Below are positions 4,753-12,022 of a stretch of 32,000 nt of DNA, in pieces. Numbering within the stretch: the first letter of the stretch is position 1; each line of letters starts with the position of its first letter. The stretch covers positions 434,499 to 466,498 of the forward strand of contig JAWAHN010000001.1 in assembly GCA_038889235.1 (NCBI GenBank). The letters are read 5' to 3'. The notes beneath the pieces were generated by a model. That model made no database searches. It worked only from the letters and a program-made list of their open reading frames with translations, and had not been told where the DNA came from. This DNA comes from Candidatus Jordarchaeales archaeon. GTDB lineage: Archaea > Asgardarchaeota > Jordiarchaeia > Jordiarchaeales > Freyrarchaeaceae. A program made the translations under genes and the position numbers.

Positions 4753-6693
4753 TTGGGAAGTGAAATTACTCCTCGCATAGGTGTCTTCATATGCCACTGA
4801 GGCAAGAACATAGCTGGCGTCATCGATGTCGAAGCGCTCAAAGACTATGTTTCAACGCTGAAGGATGTCGTCTGGGTTGAGACCTACATTTCTCTCTGCA
4901 CACACGCCGGGGCGGAGCTGATAAAGGCGAGGGTGGAGGAGCACGAGCTGAACAGGGTGGTTGTCGCGGCGTGCACCCCTAAAACCCACGAAGAAGTCTT
5001 TAGGAGAGTGTTGCTCGAGGCTGGTCTGAGCCCCAGCATGTTGGAGTTCGTGAATATCAGGGAACACGATTCCTTCGTCCATATGACGGATCCCAAAAGC
5101 GCCTTAGAAATGGCTAAGGACGTTATAAGGGGAGCGGTGGCTAAGGCGAGACTTCTTGAAGAGATACCACGCATGCTACTTCCCGTGACCCCCAGTGTCC
5201 TCGTGATAGGGGGAGGCATAAGTGGCATACGGGCTGCGCTCGAAGTGGCTGAAAGCGGGTTCAAAGTGTACTTGGTTGAAAAAAGTCCGACGATCGGCGG
5301 GAGAATGGCGATGCTTGACAGAACTTTTCCAACGAATGACTGTGCCATCTGAATACTTGGCCCGTTAATGCTTGAGACTGCCAGGAGGGAGGAAGTGGAA
5401 ATTCTCACTTATAGCGAGGTCGAGTCGGTTGAAGGAAACGTGGGGGACTTCAAGGTTAAGGTTAGGAAGAAACCGAGGTATGTTAACGAGGAGCTCTGCA
5501 ATAGCTGTGGGGCATGCGCTGAGGTCTGCCCTGTTTTCATACCGAGTAGCTTCGATCTAGGGCTTGGAGTGAAGAAGGCGATACACCAGCCGTTTCCACA
5601 GGCTGTCCCACAAACGTACCTCATAGACATTGAGAGGTGTATAAGGTGCGGGCTGTGCGAGAAGGTGTGTGACAAGAAGGCTATAGACTTCAACCAAAAG
5701 GAGCAGGTAATTGAGCTGGAGGTCGGAGCTATAATAGTGGCTTGTGGCGGTGATTCCTATACGCCGAGGTTCGGTGAGTATGGCTACGGCAAGTATGCCA
5801 ACGTGATAACTCAGTTCCACTTGGAGAGAATGCTTGCCCCGAACGGACCAACGGGTGGAGAGGTTGTGAGGCCATCTGACGGAAAGAAACCTAGAAGAGT
5901 TGTCATGATCCAGTGCGTTGGCTTTAGAGATATGAAGAGGAACGAGTATTGTTCCAACGTGTGCTGCATGGTGGCTATCAAAAACGCGATGCTATTAAAG
6001 CAGCACTTGCAGGATGTCGAGGTCTTTGTCTGCTATACTGACGTGAGGTCGTACGGTAAGGGCTACGAGGAGTTCTATGTTCAGGCGAGGGAACATGGTG
6101 TTATATTCCTAAGGGGGCGCGTTGGAGAGGTCGTCGAGGACGCCGATACAGGTGAGCTCTTAGTAGTGGTCGAGGACACGCTTTCAGGCAGAGTAATTGA
6201 GCTAAGAGCTGACCTAGTCGTCCTCTCAACAGGAGTTGTGCCATCAAGTGACTTAAGCAGGATAGCCGAGATTCTGAAGCTCGAGCGGAGCCCAGATGGA
6301 TTCATAAAGGAGTTACACTCACGCTTAGCTCCAACAGACACTAAAATGCGCGGCATATATGTCTGCGGCGATGCGCAGGGGCCAAAGGCCATAGATGCGT
6401 GTGTAGCTCAGGCGAAAGCTGCCGCGGCATCTGTCATCAGCCTTCTTTCTATCGGAAAGGTGGAGCTCGAGCTTGCTACAGCAGTCGTCAAGGATGACAA
6501 GTGTAGTGGCTGTGGGCTTTGCGAGCTCGTCTGCCCCTACAACGCTATAAGCGTCGGCGACGTCGCAACGGTAAACGAGCTCCTGTGTAGGGGGTGCGGT
6601 AAGTGCGCTGCAACATGTCCCTCTAAGGCGATTTATAGGAGGGGTTACAGGGAGGAGCAGCTTGAAGCATACATAGATGAGATCGCGAAATAG
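4753..6693 (+). CDS. hdrA: Heterodisulfide reductase subunit A, selenoprotein with two in-frame UGA (Sec16 at 4798-4800, Sec200 at 5350-5352), 646 aa
   Basis: One frame runs from TTG 4753 (SD GGAGGTG) through GVFICH-TGA-GKNIAG, VVVAACTP, VLVIGGGISG, FPTNDCAI-TGA-ILGP and the ferredoxin motifs to TAG 6693. It joins track ORFs 4933..5352 and 5368..6693. Both TGA codons sit where HdrA has Cys. Confidence 0.93.
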
Positions 6694-6704
6694 GAGGATG
6701 ATGG

Positions 6705-7187
6705 ATGACTGAACCCAAAATCGGGGCCTTCCTCTGCTGGAAAGGGTTTGACAGCCCCCAGAAATGAGGTTATGGTGCTGCAGACATGGCGGGGACGATG
6801 AGGCTGCAGTATCCCGCTGCAATTAGGCCGATAAGAGTGCCGTGCGCCGGCAGAGTTTCAGCGGACTTGATAGCTAGGTTACTGTGGAAAGGTGCGGATG
6901 GCGTAATGGTTGTAGGGTGACGAGTCGGTGAGTGTGCGTTTGAAAACGGGAACATTATGGCAGCAAGGCACGTCGAGATAGTTCAAGACCTGCTGGAACT
7001 TATGGGTCTTGGCGCGGGGAGGGTGACGATGGTTTACTGCTCCTCGGCTGAGGGCAAATACTTCGCTGAGGCGGTTAGAGAAGTAAGCGAAAAAGTGAAG
7101 GCCTTGGGTCCTAACCCTTTAAAGGCGAAAAAAGCGGATGAGCTTGGAGCCAAAAGCGCACGAGCTCCAAGTGACCCCCTCAGCTAA
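6705..7187 (+). CDS. mvhD: MvhD/VhuD [2Fe-2S] subunit, selenoprotein with two UGA (6765-6767, 6918-6920) and a predicted 21-nt intron; join(6705..6742,6764..7187), 153 aa
   Basis: ATG 6705 follows GGAGG. The spliced product reads MTEPKIGAFLCWK-U-GYGAADMAGTMRLQYP...RVPCAGRV...GADGVMVVG-U-RVGECAFENGN...LGPNPL. The track shows only the last 76 aa. Confidence 0.92.
6743..6763 (+). other. Predicted BHB intron (21 nt) in mvhD mRNA
   Basis: Central helix CUGG(6737-40)/CCAG(6758-61), bulges AAA(6741-43) and AAA(6762-64), inner stem GGGUU/AGCCC with a UGAC loop, outer pairing CCUC/GAGG. Cutting after the second base of each bulge restores CxxU spacing. Confidence 0.8.
7136..7177 (+). promoter_or_regulatory. 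Eukaryote-like SECIS candidate inside the mvhD 3' coding region
   Basis: A-UGAG (7138-7142), 8-bp stem CUUGGAGC/GCUCCAAG (7143-50/7164-71), apical loop containing AAAA (7152-55), then UGAC (7172-75). This gives the tandem G.A/A.G core. Confidence 0.75.
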
Positions 7188-7272
7188 CGCGTGGGGGCTT
7201 TCATCTCCCACCGATATCTCAATAAAAGTTTCAATGGTTGGTTGTAGTGTGTAACAAAAATGTTCTCTCGGG

Positions 7273-8295
7273 TTGATGGGTGTGAGCGACAAAGGAGTCG
7301 AGTGGTTAGCATGTAAGAGTGATGTATACGCCTTGCTGCGTAGTTTGGTTAGGTGTTTACTGGAGGAAGGGGAAGTCTCAGGTGTCGCTTCAGGAGAGGT
7401 TAAAGAAGAAAAGATTTCACTGCGCATAGTTAGGGATGTTAAGGAAGTCGACGAGGCGCCTTTAGACCGTGTTTTGCTTTACGGTTACCGTGGACTGGAA
7501 TCGCCTGTCAGAGCCGTTAGAGATAGGAAGGGGGAAAGACTAGCTATTCTTGTGAAGCCGTGCGAAGCGAGAGCCTTGATTGAGCTCTCAAAAAGGAAGC
7601 AAGTTAGCCTAAGTTCGACGTTCGTTGCAGGTTTTGATTGTCCCGGAGTGAGCGTGAACAACACCGAGGGTAGCTTACTGGCTTTGAGCGACGCACCAGA
7701 ATACGAGGTTCTGAGGGAGGCATGTAAAAGGTGTGAGGTGCACACACCCCCATATAGCGACGTGGTGATAAGCCTGCTTGCATCAGCCGACATACCCCTC
7801 GTGAGGGCTGGGACCGAAAGGGGAGTGAAGATGCTCAGGATCCTTGAAAGAAAGGGGATTCGCTTCGGTAATCCGAGCCGAGAGCTTCTTTCGAAAAGGG
7901 AGGAAAAGTTAAAGATGCTGAACGAGAACGGTAAAAGGAGACTGGAGGAAGAGGAGAAGGAGCTGCTTTCAAAACCTGCCGCTGAGAGATTCTCTTGCTT
8001 CATGAGCTGGCTTGACTCATGCATTAAGTGTGGTGCGTGCATAAGGGCTTGTCCAATTTGTTACTGTAAGGATTGCATAGTTACGGCTAGACGAAAAGAT
8101 TACGCTCCTTCATTCTTCCTAGTTACGAAAATGCTCCACATGGCGGATTCCTGCGTTTGCTGCGGTAAGTGCGATGAAGTCTGCCCGAAAAGCATACCGT
8201 TATCGTATATATTCTACCACCTGGGAAGGAGGTTTGCCTCCAGATACAACTACCTAGCAGGAGTAGACTTCTCGAACCCTCCAAGAATAATCTGA
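7273..8295 (+). CDS. FdhB/FrhB-family protein with a C-terminal 2x[4Fe-4S] domain
   Basis: Motifs LAILVKPCEARALIEL, CKRC, CIKCGACIRACPICYC and HMADSCVCCGKCDEVCP. Lies directly downstream of hdrA-mvhD. Confidence 0.8.
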   Translation: MMGVSDKGVEWLACKSDVYALLRSLVRCLLEEGEVSGVASGEVKEEKISLRIVRDVKEVDEAPLDRVLLYGYRGLESPVRAVRDRKGERLAILVKPCEARALIELSKRKQVSLSSTFVAGFDCPGVSVNNTEGSLLALSDAPEYEVLREACKRCEVHTPPYSDVVISLLASADIPLVRAGTERGVKMLRILERKGIRFGNPSRELLSKREEKLKMLNENGKRRLEEEEKELLSKPAAERFSCFMSWLDSCIKCGACIRACPICYCKDCIVTARRKDYAPSFFLVTKMLHMADSCVCCGKCDEVCPKSIPLSYIFYHLGRRFASRYNYLAGVDFSNPPRII

Positions 8296-8462
8296 AAACA
8301 CTCTCTAAAATCCAAAAGACTAAACTTTAAAGGGGTTTAGGCGTTTCTAAGTGTGTAAATTGGGAAGGAAGGAGGTTTCACGGGGTTCTTTGCTTTTTTG
8401 GGACTTTTCGGGGAGCTAGGAGGGTTCGTTTAAAAATTGTTTAAAAAATGGATGAGATAGGA

Positions 8463-8744
8463 TTAATCGTATTTTTCGTCCCCTTCAACAATGTAAACTG
8501 CGAATACTCCGTCGTCGAACTCTTCGAACTTATCGATCCGCACTCTTATTCCGAGGTCTTCAAGTATGATGCGTAAGTCATCCAGGTAGTCGTAAACACC
8601 ACATGAGCGGCACCAGAAGGATCCGCTGAAAAATACGCCAAAATCCTTTTCACCTACTTGGACCAGTTCGGCAACCACTTCTGGAGCACGGTACTTGTTG
8701 TATTCCTGAATTGCAGCATGGAGTTTTTCCTTAAAGAGGTTCAA
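8463..8744 (-). CDS. Small hypothetical protein with a CxxC motif
   Basis: ORF containing FSGSFWCRSCGVYDYLDD. Probable TTG start at 8744 after GGAGG (track start 8762). Confidence 0.65.
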   Translation of the reverse strand: MNLFKEKLHAAIQEYNKYRAPEVVAELVQVGEKDFGVFFSGSFWCRSCGVYDYLDDLRIILEDLGIRVRIDKFEEFDDGVFAVYIVEGDEKYD

Positions 8745-8806
8745 GCAACTACTCCTCCGCAAATGTTGGGAAAAGTAGGGTGTTGGTAGCCCGGCCCAGA
8801 TTCGAA

Positions 8807-8818
8807 TTCCTCCCGTGT
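8807..8818 (-). other. tRNA intron 2 (12 nt, T-arm, position 53/54)
   Basis: Sequence ACACGGGAGGAA between G53 and T54, bulges AGA/AAU, CCCC/GAGG helix with one mismatch. Confidence 0.75.
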
Positions 8819-8856
8819 CTGGGGTCCCGGGGTCCAGAGCCCCGGATGCTTGGCCG

Positions 8857-8876
8857 CTCCGCGCCCCCTAAAGGCT
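8857..8876 (-). other. tRNA intron 1 (20 nt, D-arm, position 15/16)
   Basis: Sequence AGCCTTTAGGGGGCGCGGAG, bulges AGA/AGC, relaxed GUGU/GCGG helix, inner GCCU/GGGC hairpin. Confidence 0.8.
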
Positions 8877-8919
8877 CTACACCACCGGGCTTCCAGTTTT
8901 AGGAGAATAACGAAGAATT

Positions 8920-8933
8920 TTATATAATTTTCG
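8920..8933 (-). promoter_or_regulatory. BRE-TATA promoter of tRNA-Gln
   Basis: Minus strand reads CGAAAA-TTATATAA about 30 nt upstream of the tRNA 5' end. Confidence 0.65.
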
Positions 8934-9072
8934 AGGGCGCCGACTTTCTGTCCAAGTTAATTATTCTTCATAAACCTAGCCACATGTTCTGAAAACTAGC
9001 ACGATAAACCTCTGACCCCTCTGCACGAAGAAGTTCAGCACTCATGTTTAAAGATGCGTGGCTCACACTTGA

Positions 9073-9390
9073 CTAGATTTCCTCGAGGTACCGTTTCCCC
9101 TTGCTTGTTATCTCCCACACCTCTATTTTGTTCACAAAGCCCTTTTCCTCAAGGCCTTTAAGCATCGAAACTATCTGCTCTTTAGATGCGAGCTCTTTAC
9201 CCGTCGCTTTCCGCGGAGCATTGAACTCCGTCATTATTTGGTCGAGGAGTTTTCTCTGGTTAGAGAGTATTTCGAGCAGGAAAAGCTCATCGTCGCTAAG
9301 TTTTTCTTCGAGAGGGGGGTGTTTCAGCTTTTCCTTAGCCCCCACCCACTCTGGCACTTTTCCAGGGACCTCCCCACTTTTCCCGCTCAT
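9073..9390 (-). CDS. Winged-helix domain protein
   Basis: C-terminal LKGLEEKGFV...WEITSKGKRYLE wHTH pattern. Probable ATG start at 9390. Confidence 0.65.
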   Translation of the reverse strand: MSGKSGEVPGKVPEWVGAKEKLKHPPLEEKLSDDELFLLEILSNQRKLLDQIMTEFNAPRKATGKELASKEQIVSMLKGLEEKGFVNKIEVWEITSKGKRYLEEI

Positions 9391-9529
9391 AAAGGCAACT
9401 CTCCTCCCCAACACACAGGTACCATTAGGTAACCATTCTCACATCTTCTACTTATTACTTTCTATGCGCACTTGGCCACGCGCAAAAATAGAAAGAGGGG
9501 ACATGAAAAGATTCTGGGTGTCTGGAGGG

Positions 9530-11763
9530 TTACAGCGTGTCTATGTACTCCTCAGGTTTCGGCGGTTCTGGTTTCAGTCCTTTTCTCTTCCGGATTTCAG
9601 CTATTACTTCACTTAGCAGAGACTTTGGAACTTCAGCCCACCTTGAGAACTGTGTTTGCCAGAAAGCTCTGCCAGAAGTCTTTGACCGCAAGTCATTTGC
9701 AAGCCCGAAGCTTTCTCTTACCGGTATCTCTCCATTCACGAATACTAGCGGGCCACGCTGCTCTATGTTTATAACATGACCTCTGCGCTGGGATAGTATG
9801 CTTGAAACCGCCCCTATGTACTCTGGTGGGACCATTACTTGGATCTTGTATATTGGCTCGAGCAGGGTTGGCTTGGCGCTTAGGAATGCACCCCACGTGG
9901 CACGCCTGCTCATAGGCATGATTTGCGCTGGCCCTCTGTGAACGGGGTCCTCGTGCAGCTGGCAGTCCGTCACTATTACTTTAACGCCTCTCATGGGCTC
10001 CTCGGCAAGGGGACCTGCTTCGCAAGCCCATTTTATCCCTGATATTATTGTCTCCTTCACCTCACGTAGGTACTGGATGCCACGCGTCCTGTCAACTATC
10101 ACATTGCCGTACTCGTCAATCGCCCAAATGTTCCTGGCGTCATGAGGGTCCCAACCAGCTTTTTCTCTCAGAATCTTCGCCCTCTCATCTCTCTCTTGGT
10201 ACTCCGATATTTCGCCCTCCGTGAGCAGGTTTACCGTCTCCTCGTTAAGCGGCTCAACCATGATCCAAATCCTGTTGTGCTTGTTCGGGCTTTTTCCTAG
10301 TACCGGCTGGGAGGACGAGGTGACCGTTTCCCTGTAGACCACTATTGGCGGTGAGACTGTGATATCAACTTCTGACTGGATTTCCTTCAGAGCTATTTCG
10401 AGGTGTAGTTCGCCCATTCCCGAGAGCAGGTATTCTCCGGTTTCTTGATTAATCGTCGTCACTATGTTCGGGTCTTGAATCGAGATTTTCTGCATCAGTT
10501 CCACAAGTTTCGGTAGATCTTTCGGGTGTTTCGGCTCTATGGCTACGGTGACAACAGGCTCTGAAATGTACTTAATTTTTTCAAATGGAACCACGATGTC
10601 CTTTATGTTTTCGGCTACCACGGTTTCTCCAGCTCTAGCCAGCTCCAGTCCGAGCAGAGCCGCTATGTTGCCAGCTGGTATGGAACTGACTATGGCTCGT
10701 TTGGCACCCATGTAAATGCTCGTCTGCTGAACCCTGTAACCTTTCTTAGCTGTGAGCAGGTAAACTTGGTCTCCTTCACTTATCGTGCCGGAGAAAACTC
10801 TCCCCGTCGATACTATTCCCGCGTGGGGGTCGACTATAACCTTGTTTAGACAAATTACAGTTGGGCCGTTCTCATCGCACTCAAGCATCGCTTTTCCTAT
10901 CTCGCTGTTAAGGTCCCCGTGCCAGATCTTCGGCACTCTGTAGCGTTGAGCCTCAATCGGGTTGGGAAGGTGGTCGACGACCATGTCCAACACAGCAGCA
11001 TGAACCGGGAGAAGCTTCTTGAGCTCGTCTACCCTATCTTCCTTGTAATAGGCGACTATGTCACTAAACTTCAACCCTAACTCGAGCATTTGAGGAACAG
11101 TAAACCCCCACCTGTGAAGGGCTGAACCAAAGGCCACGCTACCATTAGCCGGATTAACCTTCCACTTGTTGGCGAACTCCTTCTCACCATAAATGTCGAT
11201 TAAACCATTAAAATCTCGAATAATCCTGTTAAGCTTCTCTTGGACGCCGCGCTCGTCAAGCCTTAACTCGCGGATTAAACGGTCAATCTTATTAATAAAC
11301 AATACGGGTCTGACACGCTCAGATAAAGCCTGTCGAGTAACGGTTTCCGTTTGGACGCCTATCTCCTCTACGGCATCTACCACTACGACCGCGCCGTCAA
11401 TTACTCTTAAAGCTCTCGTAACGTGCCCGGTGAAGTTTACGCGAGCGAGCCAGCCGGCTCGTTCTCTACGTGTCCGGGCGTGTCTATGAGGTTTATGAGG
11501 TACTCTTTCCCGTCGAACTTGTGCACTAGAGATATGTTAGCGGCTTTTATTGTTATCCCTCTTTTCTGCTCCTCTTCAAGGTAGTCCAATGCCCTTGCTT
11601 CTCCCGCTATCGTTGGGGAGAGTAGCCCAGCTTCAGCAAGCAGGGAGTCGCTTAGCGTTGTTTTGCCGTGGTCGACGTGTGCTATTATTCCGAAGTTCCT
11701 TATCTGCTCTTTCACTCGCATCATTCTTTCAACTTCTTCAATGTACTTCATCCTTGCAGACAA
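9530..11763 (-). CDS. fusA: Translation elongation factor 2 (aEF-2 family), spliced: complement(join(9530..11436,11466..11763)), 734 aa
   Basis: Exon 1 has [15 protein letters not shown] and DTPGHV. Exon 2 continues [28 protein letters not shown] and [12 protein letters not shown]. The exons total 298+1907=2205 nt, which is 735 codons. Confidence 0.93.
11437..11465 (-). other. Predicted BHB intron (29 nt) in EF-2 mRNA
   Basis: Helix ACGU/GCGU, bulges AGA (11467-65) and AAA (11438-36), inner stem GAACGAGCC/GGCUCGCUC (8 of 9 bp) with a GGCU loop, outer CCCGG/CCGGG. The intron contains an in-frame TAA. Confidence 0.88.
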
Positions 11764-12022
11764 AGATTTCCACCTCTCACCTTCTTAATGGTGAGATTAA
11801 GATAACAGCTTTTAAACCTTTTTTTAAACCTTTTCAAGTTTAAAAAGCTGCAAGCCCCCGGCCTAGGGGACTTATACCTTAATCAGGAGCTTCTAGTGTT
11901 TTACTGGGGCGCAAACCGCTCACTTTCCGAGTTTTGCACCACGTTCTTTAAATTGGTAAAGGTTAAATAGGTCGCCACTTTCATCTTGTTGACGAAAATT
12001 TCGTTAACAAAGGGGGGCATGT

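Follow-up and report, generated by a model that had tools for sequence, protein, structure and literature searches.

Introns of the bulge-helix-bulge (BHB) kind, a hallmark of archaeal tRNA genes, reportedly also occur in a protein-coding transcript, the crenarchaeal cbf5 pre-mRNA, the work being that of Watanabe et al. in 2002 and Yoshinari et al. in 2006. The cbf5 pre-mRNA intron of Crenarchaeota was also described by Yokobori et al. (2009, PMC2738675), and as of 2020 it was the only BHB intron reported in a coding region, alongside one case in a 5′ untranslated region (5′-UTR), that of Haloferax volcanii HVO_1309, whose mRNA has been confirmed in vivo and in vitro as a substrate of the splicing endonuclease (Schwarz et al. 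2020, PMC7714728). Heavily interrupted tRNA genes, overlooked by standard tRNA finders, have been published for Jordiarchaeia (Freyr-/Jordiarchaeaceae) and Atabeyarchaeia (Valentin-Alvarado et al. 2024, PMC11291895; bioRxiv 10.64898/2026.10.13.758758). The stretch considered here (the window, 32,000 nucleotides, nt) comes from the hot-spring Asgard archaeon Candidatus Jordarchaeum, and contains two protein genes, mvhD, which encodes a hydrogenase subunit, and the gene for elongation factor 2 (EF-2), as well as a tRNA-Gln(CUG) gene, all interrupted by short inserts. The inserts of mvhD and EF-2 are best read as BHB introns of the archaeal tRNA-gene kind that are spliced out of the mRNA, with a probability of roughly 0.88.

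Several features are shared with the crenarchaeal cbf5 intron (whose endonuclease is of the hetero-oligomeric type), namely a short intron in a coding sequence, a BHB fold, and gain or loss among relatives, and the cbf5 gene of the present genome is itself split by 29 nt. The differences lie in the genes concerned (EF-2, mvhD and at least a dozen others), in the Asgard host, and in the presence of several interrupted genes in one genome. With HVO_1309 the likeness is that of an mRNA targeted by the archaeal splicing endonuclease, suggested here by the genes present, whereas the HVO_1309 intron lies in an untranslated leader and is independent of the frame, which splicing would restore in the present case. 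A more distant parallel is provided by HAC1/XBP1, where a protein endonuclease, Ire1, cleaves the mRNA at two stem-loops and a ligase of the tRNA type, RtcB in metazoa, reseals it with a change of frame. Ire1 is not a tRNA endonuclease, however, and serves one regulated target as against many here, so that this is an analogy only, with no evolutionary link shown. A search of openly available papers and preprints, reaching to autumn 2026, gave no report of Asgard mRNA introns (subscription-only papers being outside the search); relative to this searchable literature the mechanism is known, while its scale, gene targets and lineage are undescribed.

The host genome (labelled G000) is a metagenome-assembled genome (MAG) of 2.14 Mb in 8 contigs, and its assignment to Candidatus Jordarchaeum / Jordarchaeales agrees with the Asgard origin proposed in an earlier note on this DNA. 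According to Pfam and to the listing of open reading frames (ORFs) of the window, the plus strand carries an hdrA-mvhD-frhB-like cluster, followed on the minus strand by the tRNA gene and the EF-2 gene. The earlier note had pointed to four inserts, one in mvhD, two in tRNA-Gln and one in EF-2, and all four are found where it placed them. The layout of the two protein genes is as follows:

6705..6742, plus strand: mvhD exon 1 (MTEPKIGAFLCWK), its last two bases belonging to the 5′ bulge
6743..6763, plus strand: mvhD intron, 21 nt and in frame in this genome, 22 nt and frame-breaking in G001-G004
6764..7187, plus strand: mvhD exon 2, with TGA codons (read as selenocysteine) at 6765-6767 and 6918-6920, at conserved Cys positions
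6737..6740, plus strand: 5′ strand (CUGG) of the mvhD BHB central helix, partner CCAG at 6758-6761, bulges AAA at 6741-6743 and AAA at 6762-6764
11466..11763, minus strand: EF-2 exon 1, start TTG 11763 or ATG 11751, ending in ...DTPGHV, GTP_EFTU profile positions 1-81
11437..11465, minus strand: EF-2 intron, 29 nt, frame-breaking
9530..11436, minus strand: EF-2 exon 2, through the stop codon, GTP_EFTU profile positions 80-176, continuing exon 1

The EF-2 coding sequence is split over two frames at ...DTPGHV / DFTGH..., the GTP_EFTU profile stopping at position 81 in one frame and resuming at position 80 in the other. Read on the minus strand, the site is ACGU-AG|A, a 9-bp hairpin with one A.C mismatch, then GCGU-AA|A, and removal of the 29 nt at 11437-11465 restores DTPGHV|DF within a single frame of 735 codons (from TTG 11763) or 731 codons (from ATG 11751), while translation of the unspliced mRNA ends at a TAA within the intron. 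The insert occurs at the same bond in three Jordarchaeum genomes (the present one, G001 and G003), which differ from one another at several intron positions, and is absent to the base from G002 of the same genus, from G004 of another genus of the family, and from five Freyrarchaeaceae genomes (G006-G010). The mvhD site reads CUGG-AA|A-(hairpin)-CCAG-AA|A around the 21-nt insert at 6743-6763, whose removal gives FLCWK-U-GYGAAD, to be compared with the uninterrupted FLC(W/L)K-U-GYGAAD of 8 genomes from other Asgard families. An insert at this very site, directly before the selenocysteine (Sec) codon, is found in all five genomes of the family (two genera) and in none of the eight from other families; it measures 21 nt here and 22 nt, breaking the frame, in the other four. 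Without splicing, no full-length protein would be expected from EF-2, nor from mvhD in four of the five related genomes.

A single cut rule describes both mRNAs. The central helix joins four bases of the exon to the four intron bases that immediately precede a purine triplet, and a second purine triplet lies 3′ of the exon strand. When the cuts are placed behind the second base of each triplet, the resulting junction is identical to that of the intron-less alleles and of the contigs from an RNA library (X4, see below), and these two sources set the intron boundaries without recourse to the motif. The earlier note had made this claim for all four inserts, and it holds, the tRNA cloverleaf playing the part of the reference for the tRNA gene. 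Its further claim of a common geometry (a 4-bp helix with 3-nt bulges) is borne out in part: the central helices CUGG/CCAG (mvhD), ACGU/GCGU (EF-2) and GUGU/GCGC (tRNA D-loop) each have a 3-nt purine stretch 3′ of each strand, but the tRNA T-arm insert has only three of four pairs here, and the 3′ sites of both mRNA introns are relaxed. Both mRNA introns show the central helix and the inner hairpin when folded with ViennaRNA, and for EF-2 none of 200 shuffles folds as well (z = -3.9). Standard pairing amounts to 100% for mvhD (64 of 64 pair cells across 5 genomes, with one compensatory double change from G-C to A-U) and to 96.5% of pair cells for EF-2 (with several wobble-compatible changes), versus 10-55% with slid partners; among relatives, the insert sequence is far more variable than the exon sequence, with pairing maintained.

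Evidence from RNA comes from a comparison of four sequencing runs over positions 6400-11900: a DNA run, possibly the source of the genome (X1), an RNA run (X4), and two raw-read RNA runs (X14 and X15). X4 is the metatranscriptome of a different study and represents a strain that differs at about 2% of positions. Exactly 21 nt are missing at the mvhD site from one of its contigs (2418 nt, depth 23), and exactly 29 nt at the EF-2 site from a second one (1951 nt, depth 19.6), whereas the DNA run X1 retains both inserts (depth 107 at mvhD and 103 at EF-2, about 105x overall, no variants). The depth of X4 is about 20 on mvhD and EF-2 and 0-2.5 on the gene between them (7320-8423), and this unevenness fits transcripts better than DNA carry-over.

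How would such introns be removed? The mvhD and EF-2 genes would be transcribed with the insert included, and the pre-mRNA would fold so that the last bases of the intron pair with four exon bases lying just ahead of the 5′ splice site. The tRNA splicing endonuclease (EndA) would then cut each strand behind the second base of its unpaired stretch, and RtcB would ligate the exons into an mRNA with an intact frame; the same enzymes would also excise both tRNA-Gln introns. Two EndA-domain paralogues (ORFs at C1:1056473-1056727 and C3:444309-444566) and an intact RtcB (C1:704115-705422) are encoded in the genome, and their presence leads us to infer EndA as the nuclease and RtcB as the ligase. The existence of two paralogues makes an EndA of the (alpha-beta)2 broad-specificity type probable. 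Splicing of mRNA by EndA and an RtcB-type ligase, the central proposal of the earlier note, thus finds support in these genes and in the X4 contigs lacking the inserts, the enzymes themselves being deduced from the genome.

To what extent do similar introns occur in other genes? A homology census was run with tblastn (default seeding), using six-frame ORFs from 78% (2.78 of 3.58 Mb) of the closed genome of an order-mate (G006) against the present genome; its result is a lower bound, as introns common to both genomes escape it. Frame-switching splits with 26-44 extra nt were detected at nine sites including EF-2. The list below gives the eight other census sites first, followed by three in-frame, stop-containing inserts with a strong BHB, and by four introns whose removal restores a long frame and a conserved motif:

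aIF5B-like GTPase: census split, 29 nt, inside GHIDHGKT|S
rpl44e: census split, 29 nt
site beside eIF2-gamma: census, frame-switching split
dnaG-like gene: census split, 34 nt
Rab-like GTPase: census, frame-switching split
C1:1035681-1035712: census split, 32 nt
C2:145.9k: census split, 29 nt
leuC: census split, 29 nt (homology-derived length 26 nt)
Rab-like gene: in-frame, stop-containing insert, 30 nt, strong BHB
Fe-S protein gene: in-frame, stop-containing insert, 30 nt, strong BHB
alba: in-frame, stop-containing insert, 27 nt, strong BHB
kae1: intron of 14 nt, frame and motif restored
hypD: intron of 17 nt, frame and motif restored
cbf5: intron of 29 nt, inside GHAGTL|DPKVTG, frame and motif restored
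gatE: intron of 31 nt, frame and motif restored

At seven of the nine sites, picked by homology alone, the BHB score reaches an empirical p <= 0.05 versus random positions, leuC counting among the seven only at a length (L) of 29, which was picked post hoc (p = 0.84 at the homology-derived 26 nt); a Fisher combination of the nine p-values, done by hand with the conservative leuC value, gives about 5e-6. On this count the 2.14 Mb hold 14 or more solid mRNA introns and some 3 probable ones, a lower bound, and at least 12 protein genes beyond mvhD and EF-2 are interrupted in this way, in agreement with the earlier note, which had expected many more introns genome-wide. About half of the mRNA introns measure 29-30 nt and have a shared build with no mutual sequence similarity, consisting of the third bulge base, a stem of roughly 9 bp, a loop of 3-5 nt, four central-helix bases and two bulge bases.

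Several results nevertheless weigh against splicing of these mRNAs, and concern the motif, its frequency, and the RNA. In minimum-free-energy folds, the 3′ splice sites of both mRNA introns lie in small asymmetric internal loops (8x2 and 4x2) instead of clean 3-nt bulges, and the two motifs are therefore relaxed BHBs. The mvhD intron folds hardly better than its shuffles (z = -1.5), and covariation is weak, 103 of 500 shuffles equalling the observed value; with only 3-5 sequences, shuffle statistics on pairing have little force and are not leaned on. The excess of BHB hits in coding sequences over controls that the earlier note had looked to did not appear in three genome-wide scans that combined the motif with ORF fusion. 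In the scan for a strict central plus inner helix (L 16-300), frame-restoring candidates were at most as numerous as frame-wrong controls. The scan with a purine-bulge filter (L 12-90) gave no excess of frame-restoring candidates over such controls, nor did the best-BHB scoring of gene junctions filtered for coding potential. An example tally from these scans is 84 frame-restoring versus 81 frame-wrong at a score >= 15. This is attributed to a motif too degenerate to give such scans much power, as the homology census shows, and is not taken as rarity or absence of introns; the strict descriptor misses real ones, such as EF-2 (A.C mismatch in the inner stem) and gatE (mismatch in the central helix). 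On the RNA side, X14 and X15, which belong to the source study, have no reads on the stretch in the roughly 3% of each run that was read, which amounts to no test, and the tRNA-Gln region is unspliced in the RNA contigs, as expected of precursors, and lends no positive support. Finally, the evidence for spliced mRNA consists of assembled contigs from one RNA library of a related strain with no DNA from the same sample, which formally leaves room for an intron-less DNA allele there.

This last point opens the way to a first alternative, in which the inserts are never removed from RNA: the X4 strain would be free of them in its DNA, and in the present genome the genes would be broken, or rescued by frameshifting or ribosomal bypass. 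Intron-less EF-2 alleles do occur at the DNA level in the genus (G002), and the X4 sample offers no DNA run to compare. However, a strain 98% identical must then have lost both inserts precisely, which seems unlikely given that the mvhD insert persists in two genera, being present in every genome of the family examined, and EF-2 is essential and single-copy in this form. Moreover, the insert boundaries follow the endonuclease cut rule with helices kept despite sequence change, and there is no precedent for ribosomes bypassing 21, 22 and 29 nt in many genes. JGI DNA metagenome contigs give one match to the unspliced EF-2 junction and none to the spliced one, which is weak evidence because the collection has few relatives. 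Persistence of the inserts in the mRNA is accordingly held to be very improbable.

A second alternative accepts removal from the RNA, by a nuclease or ligase other than EndA and RtcB or by self-processing, and is given just as slim a chance. In its favour, the role of these enzymes in this organism is deduced from their genes, and the 3′ sites are relaxed instead of canonical bulges. Against this, at 14-34 nt the introns fall far short of the size that group I or group II self-splicing requires, and their geometry and cut positions match those of the tRNA introns of this genome. In addition, relaxed motifs are within the range of the (alpha-beta)2 EndA with an L1 loop found in TACK and Asgard archaea (PMC5829648), and in Crenarchaeota the cbf5 pre-mRNA is handled by this route (PMC2738675; PMC7714728). 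Assembly or sequencing artefacts and pseudogene scars can be dismissed, even for a MAG in 8 contigs, as source DNA contigs span both sites at about 105x without variants, the same inserts recur in independent assemblies from other sites, and the flanking coding sequence is conserved as purifying selection predicts. Group I or group II self-splicing introns and inteins were also considered and rejected: the inserts measure 12-29 nt and Rfam finds nothing in the window, whereas a group I or II ribozyme core takes up hundreds of nt and an intein is an in-frame protein-splicing domain. Endonuclease splicing of the mvhD and EF-2 mRNAs is thus the reading retained here.

The EF-2 gene is interrupted in other ways among Asgard relatives. 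In G005 (Freyrarchaeaceae; L010, minus strand, about 1815-2032), a 217-nt insert lies 6 nt upstream of the Jordarchaeum site, within the DTPGHVDF codons; its ends (CCGG-AC|U / ACGG-AA|A) fit the cut rule, its inner stem forms 9 of 10 bp, and it has stops in all three frames. From these features it is probably a long BHB intron, independent of the Jordarchaeum one. In two genomes of another Asgard family (G020:C23:39102-40623 and G040:C61:7054-7645), an EF-2 paralogue is split near residue 69 into frames about 13-28 nt apart, and mRNA mini-introns may occur outside Jordarchaeia too. By contrast, in the EF-2 of G012:C29 and G023:C137 residues ~42 and ~34 are separated by an in-frame gap of ~500 nt, inside one open frame of 919-924 aa, and this resembles an intein more than an RNA intron.

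In the present genome, four sites (C1:806573-806601, C1:849352-849933, C1:445934-445964 and C1:996131-996270) are interruptions inside codons of G-domain motifs (P-loop, switch I, G3), and such G-domain interruptions are seen in three translational GTPase genes (EF-2, aIF5B-like and eIF2-gamma) and in one of seven Ras/Rab-like genes. The introns seem to lie preferentially in the most conserved codons, although a detection bias may contribute. Insertion directed at conserved sequence may be the mechanism by which they spread (compare the G005 insert, 6 nt away from the Jordarchaeum site).

The tRNA-Gln gene of the window was parsed by hand and by folding, as neither ARAGORN nor Rfam (gathering threshold) reports a tRNA in the window:

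8784..8891, minus strand: tRNA-Gln(CUG) gene, CCA encoded, with two non-canonical introns
8859..8876, minus strand: tRNA-Gln intron 1, 18 nt, D-loop, positions 15/16, helix GUGU/GCGC, bulges AGA/GGA
8807..8818, minus strand: tRNA-Gln intron 2, 12 nt, T-arm, positions 53/54, relaxed motif with 3/4 central pairs

The D-loop intron is bordered by GUGU-AG|A ... GCGC-GG|A, and once both introns are removed, 75 nt remain, which at minimum free energy fold into a cloverleaf with anticodon CUG. The D-loop insert measures 18 nt here and in G001, while that of G003 has 16 nt and differs in sequence; the T-arm insert measures 12 nt here, 13 nt in G001, 15 nt in G003 and 0 nt in G004, and its central helix CCCC/GAGG has three of four pairs in this genome and all four in G001. 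Two non-canonical introns in D-loop and T-arm, overlooked by annotators, are a known trait of this class and are not new, here in tRNA-Gln. The papers on multi-intron Jordiarchaeia tRNAs differ in leaving protein-gene introns unmentioned, the 2024 paper (PMC11291895) dealing only with tRNA introns and the word mRNA occurring 0 times in the 2026 preprint. Over the tRNA-Gln gene (window 8768-8895), the depth of the source DNA is doubled (about 200 versus 100), with fragmented contigs and two variants, which points to a second near-identical paralogous copy. ARAGORN gives a tRNA-Gln(CUG) candidate at C1:988589-988715. Contig breaks inside the tRNA gene were considered as evidence of splicing and rejected, for they occur in RNA and DNA contigs alike and the DNA depth is doubled.

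A point absent from the earlier note is that the mvhD frame (6705-7187) passes two in-frame TGA codons, the first directly after the intron. Two TGA codons are found at the matching places in most Asgard orthologues, and Cys takes their place in the homologue of G016. This alignment of TGA with Cys and the presence of SepSecS in the genome (412 bits) indicate that both codons specify selenocysteine, which makes the product a predicted selenoprotein of the MvhD/VhuD type; of the Sec machinery, SepSecS was the part checked. Upstream, the hdrA-like gene (window 4801-6693, plus strand) appears as two ORFs of the same frame parted by one TGA at 5350-5352 (...FPTNDCAI-TGA-ILGPLM...), with the FAD-binding part 5′ and the Fer4 parts 3′ of it, and this TGA is very probably the third selenocysteine codon of the window.

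Taken together, an essential translation factor and a selenoprotein of energy metabolism would depend on a kind of splicing formerly described as a one-gene oddity (cbf5) plus one 5′-UTR case, and the substrates of the enzyme would include many mRNAs besides tRNAs. Genes of this type are annotated as frameshifted pseudogenes or as two ORFs, which biases estimates of completeness and reconstructions of metabolism for these lineages. The placement of introns in conserved codons and their common 29-nt build raise the question of the route by which they were gained. Interrupted protein genes without a spliceosome, in cells where transcription and translation are thought to be coupled, would also offer a testable system. 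Only tentatively can it be proposed that in Jordarchaeia endonuclease splicing of mRNA is a regular layer of gene expression and not a curiosity. If so, translation output would be tied to the tRNA-splicing machinery through EF-2, aIF5B, eIF2-gamma, cbf5, kae1, rpl44e and alba, and split genes processed by protein enzymes, with no part played by a spliceosome, would exist in the closest prokaryotic relatives of eukaryotes.

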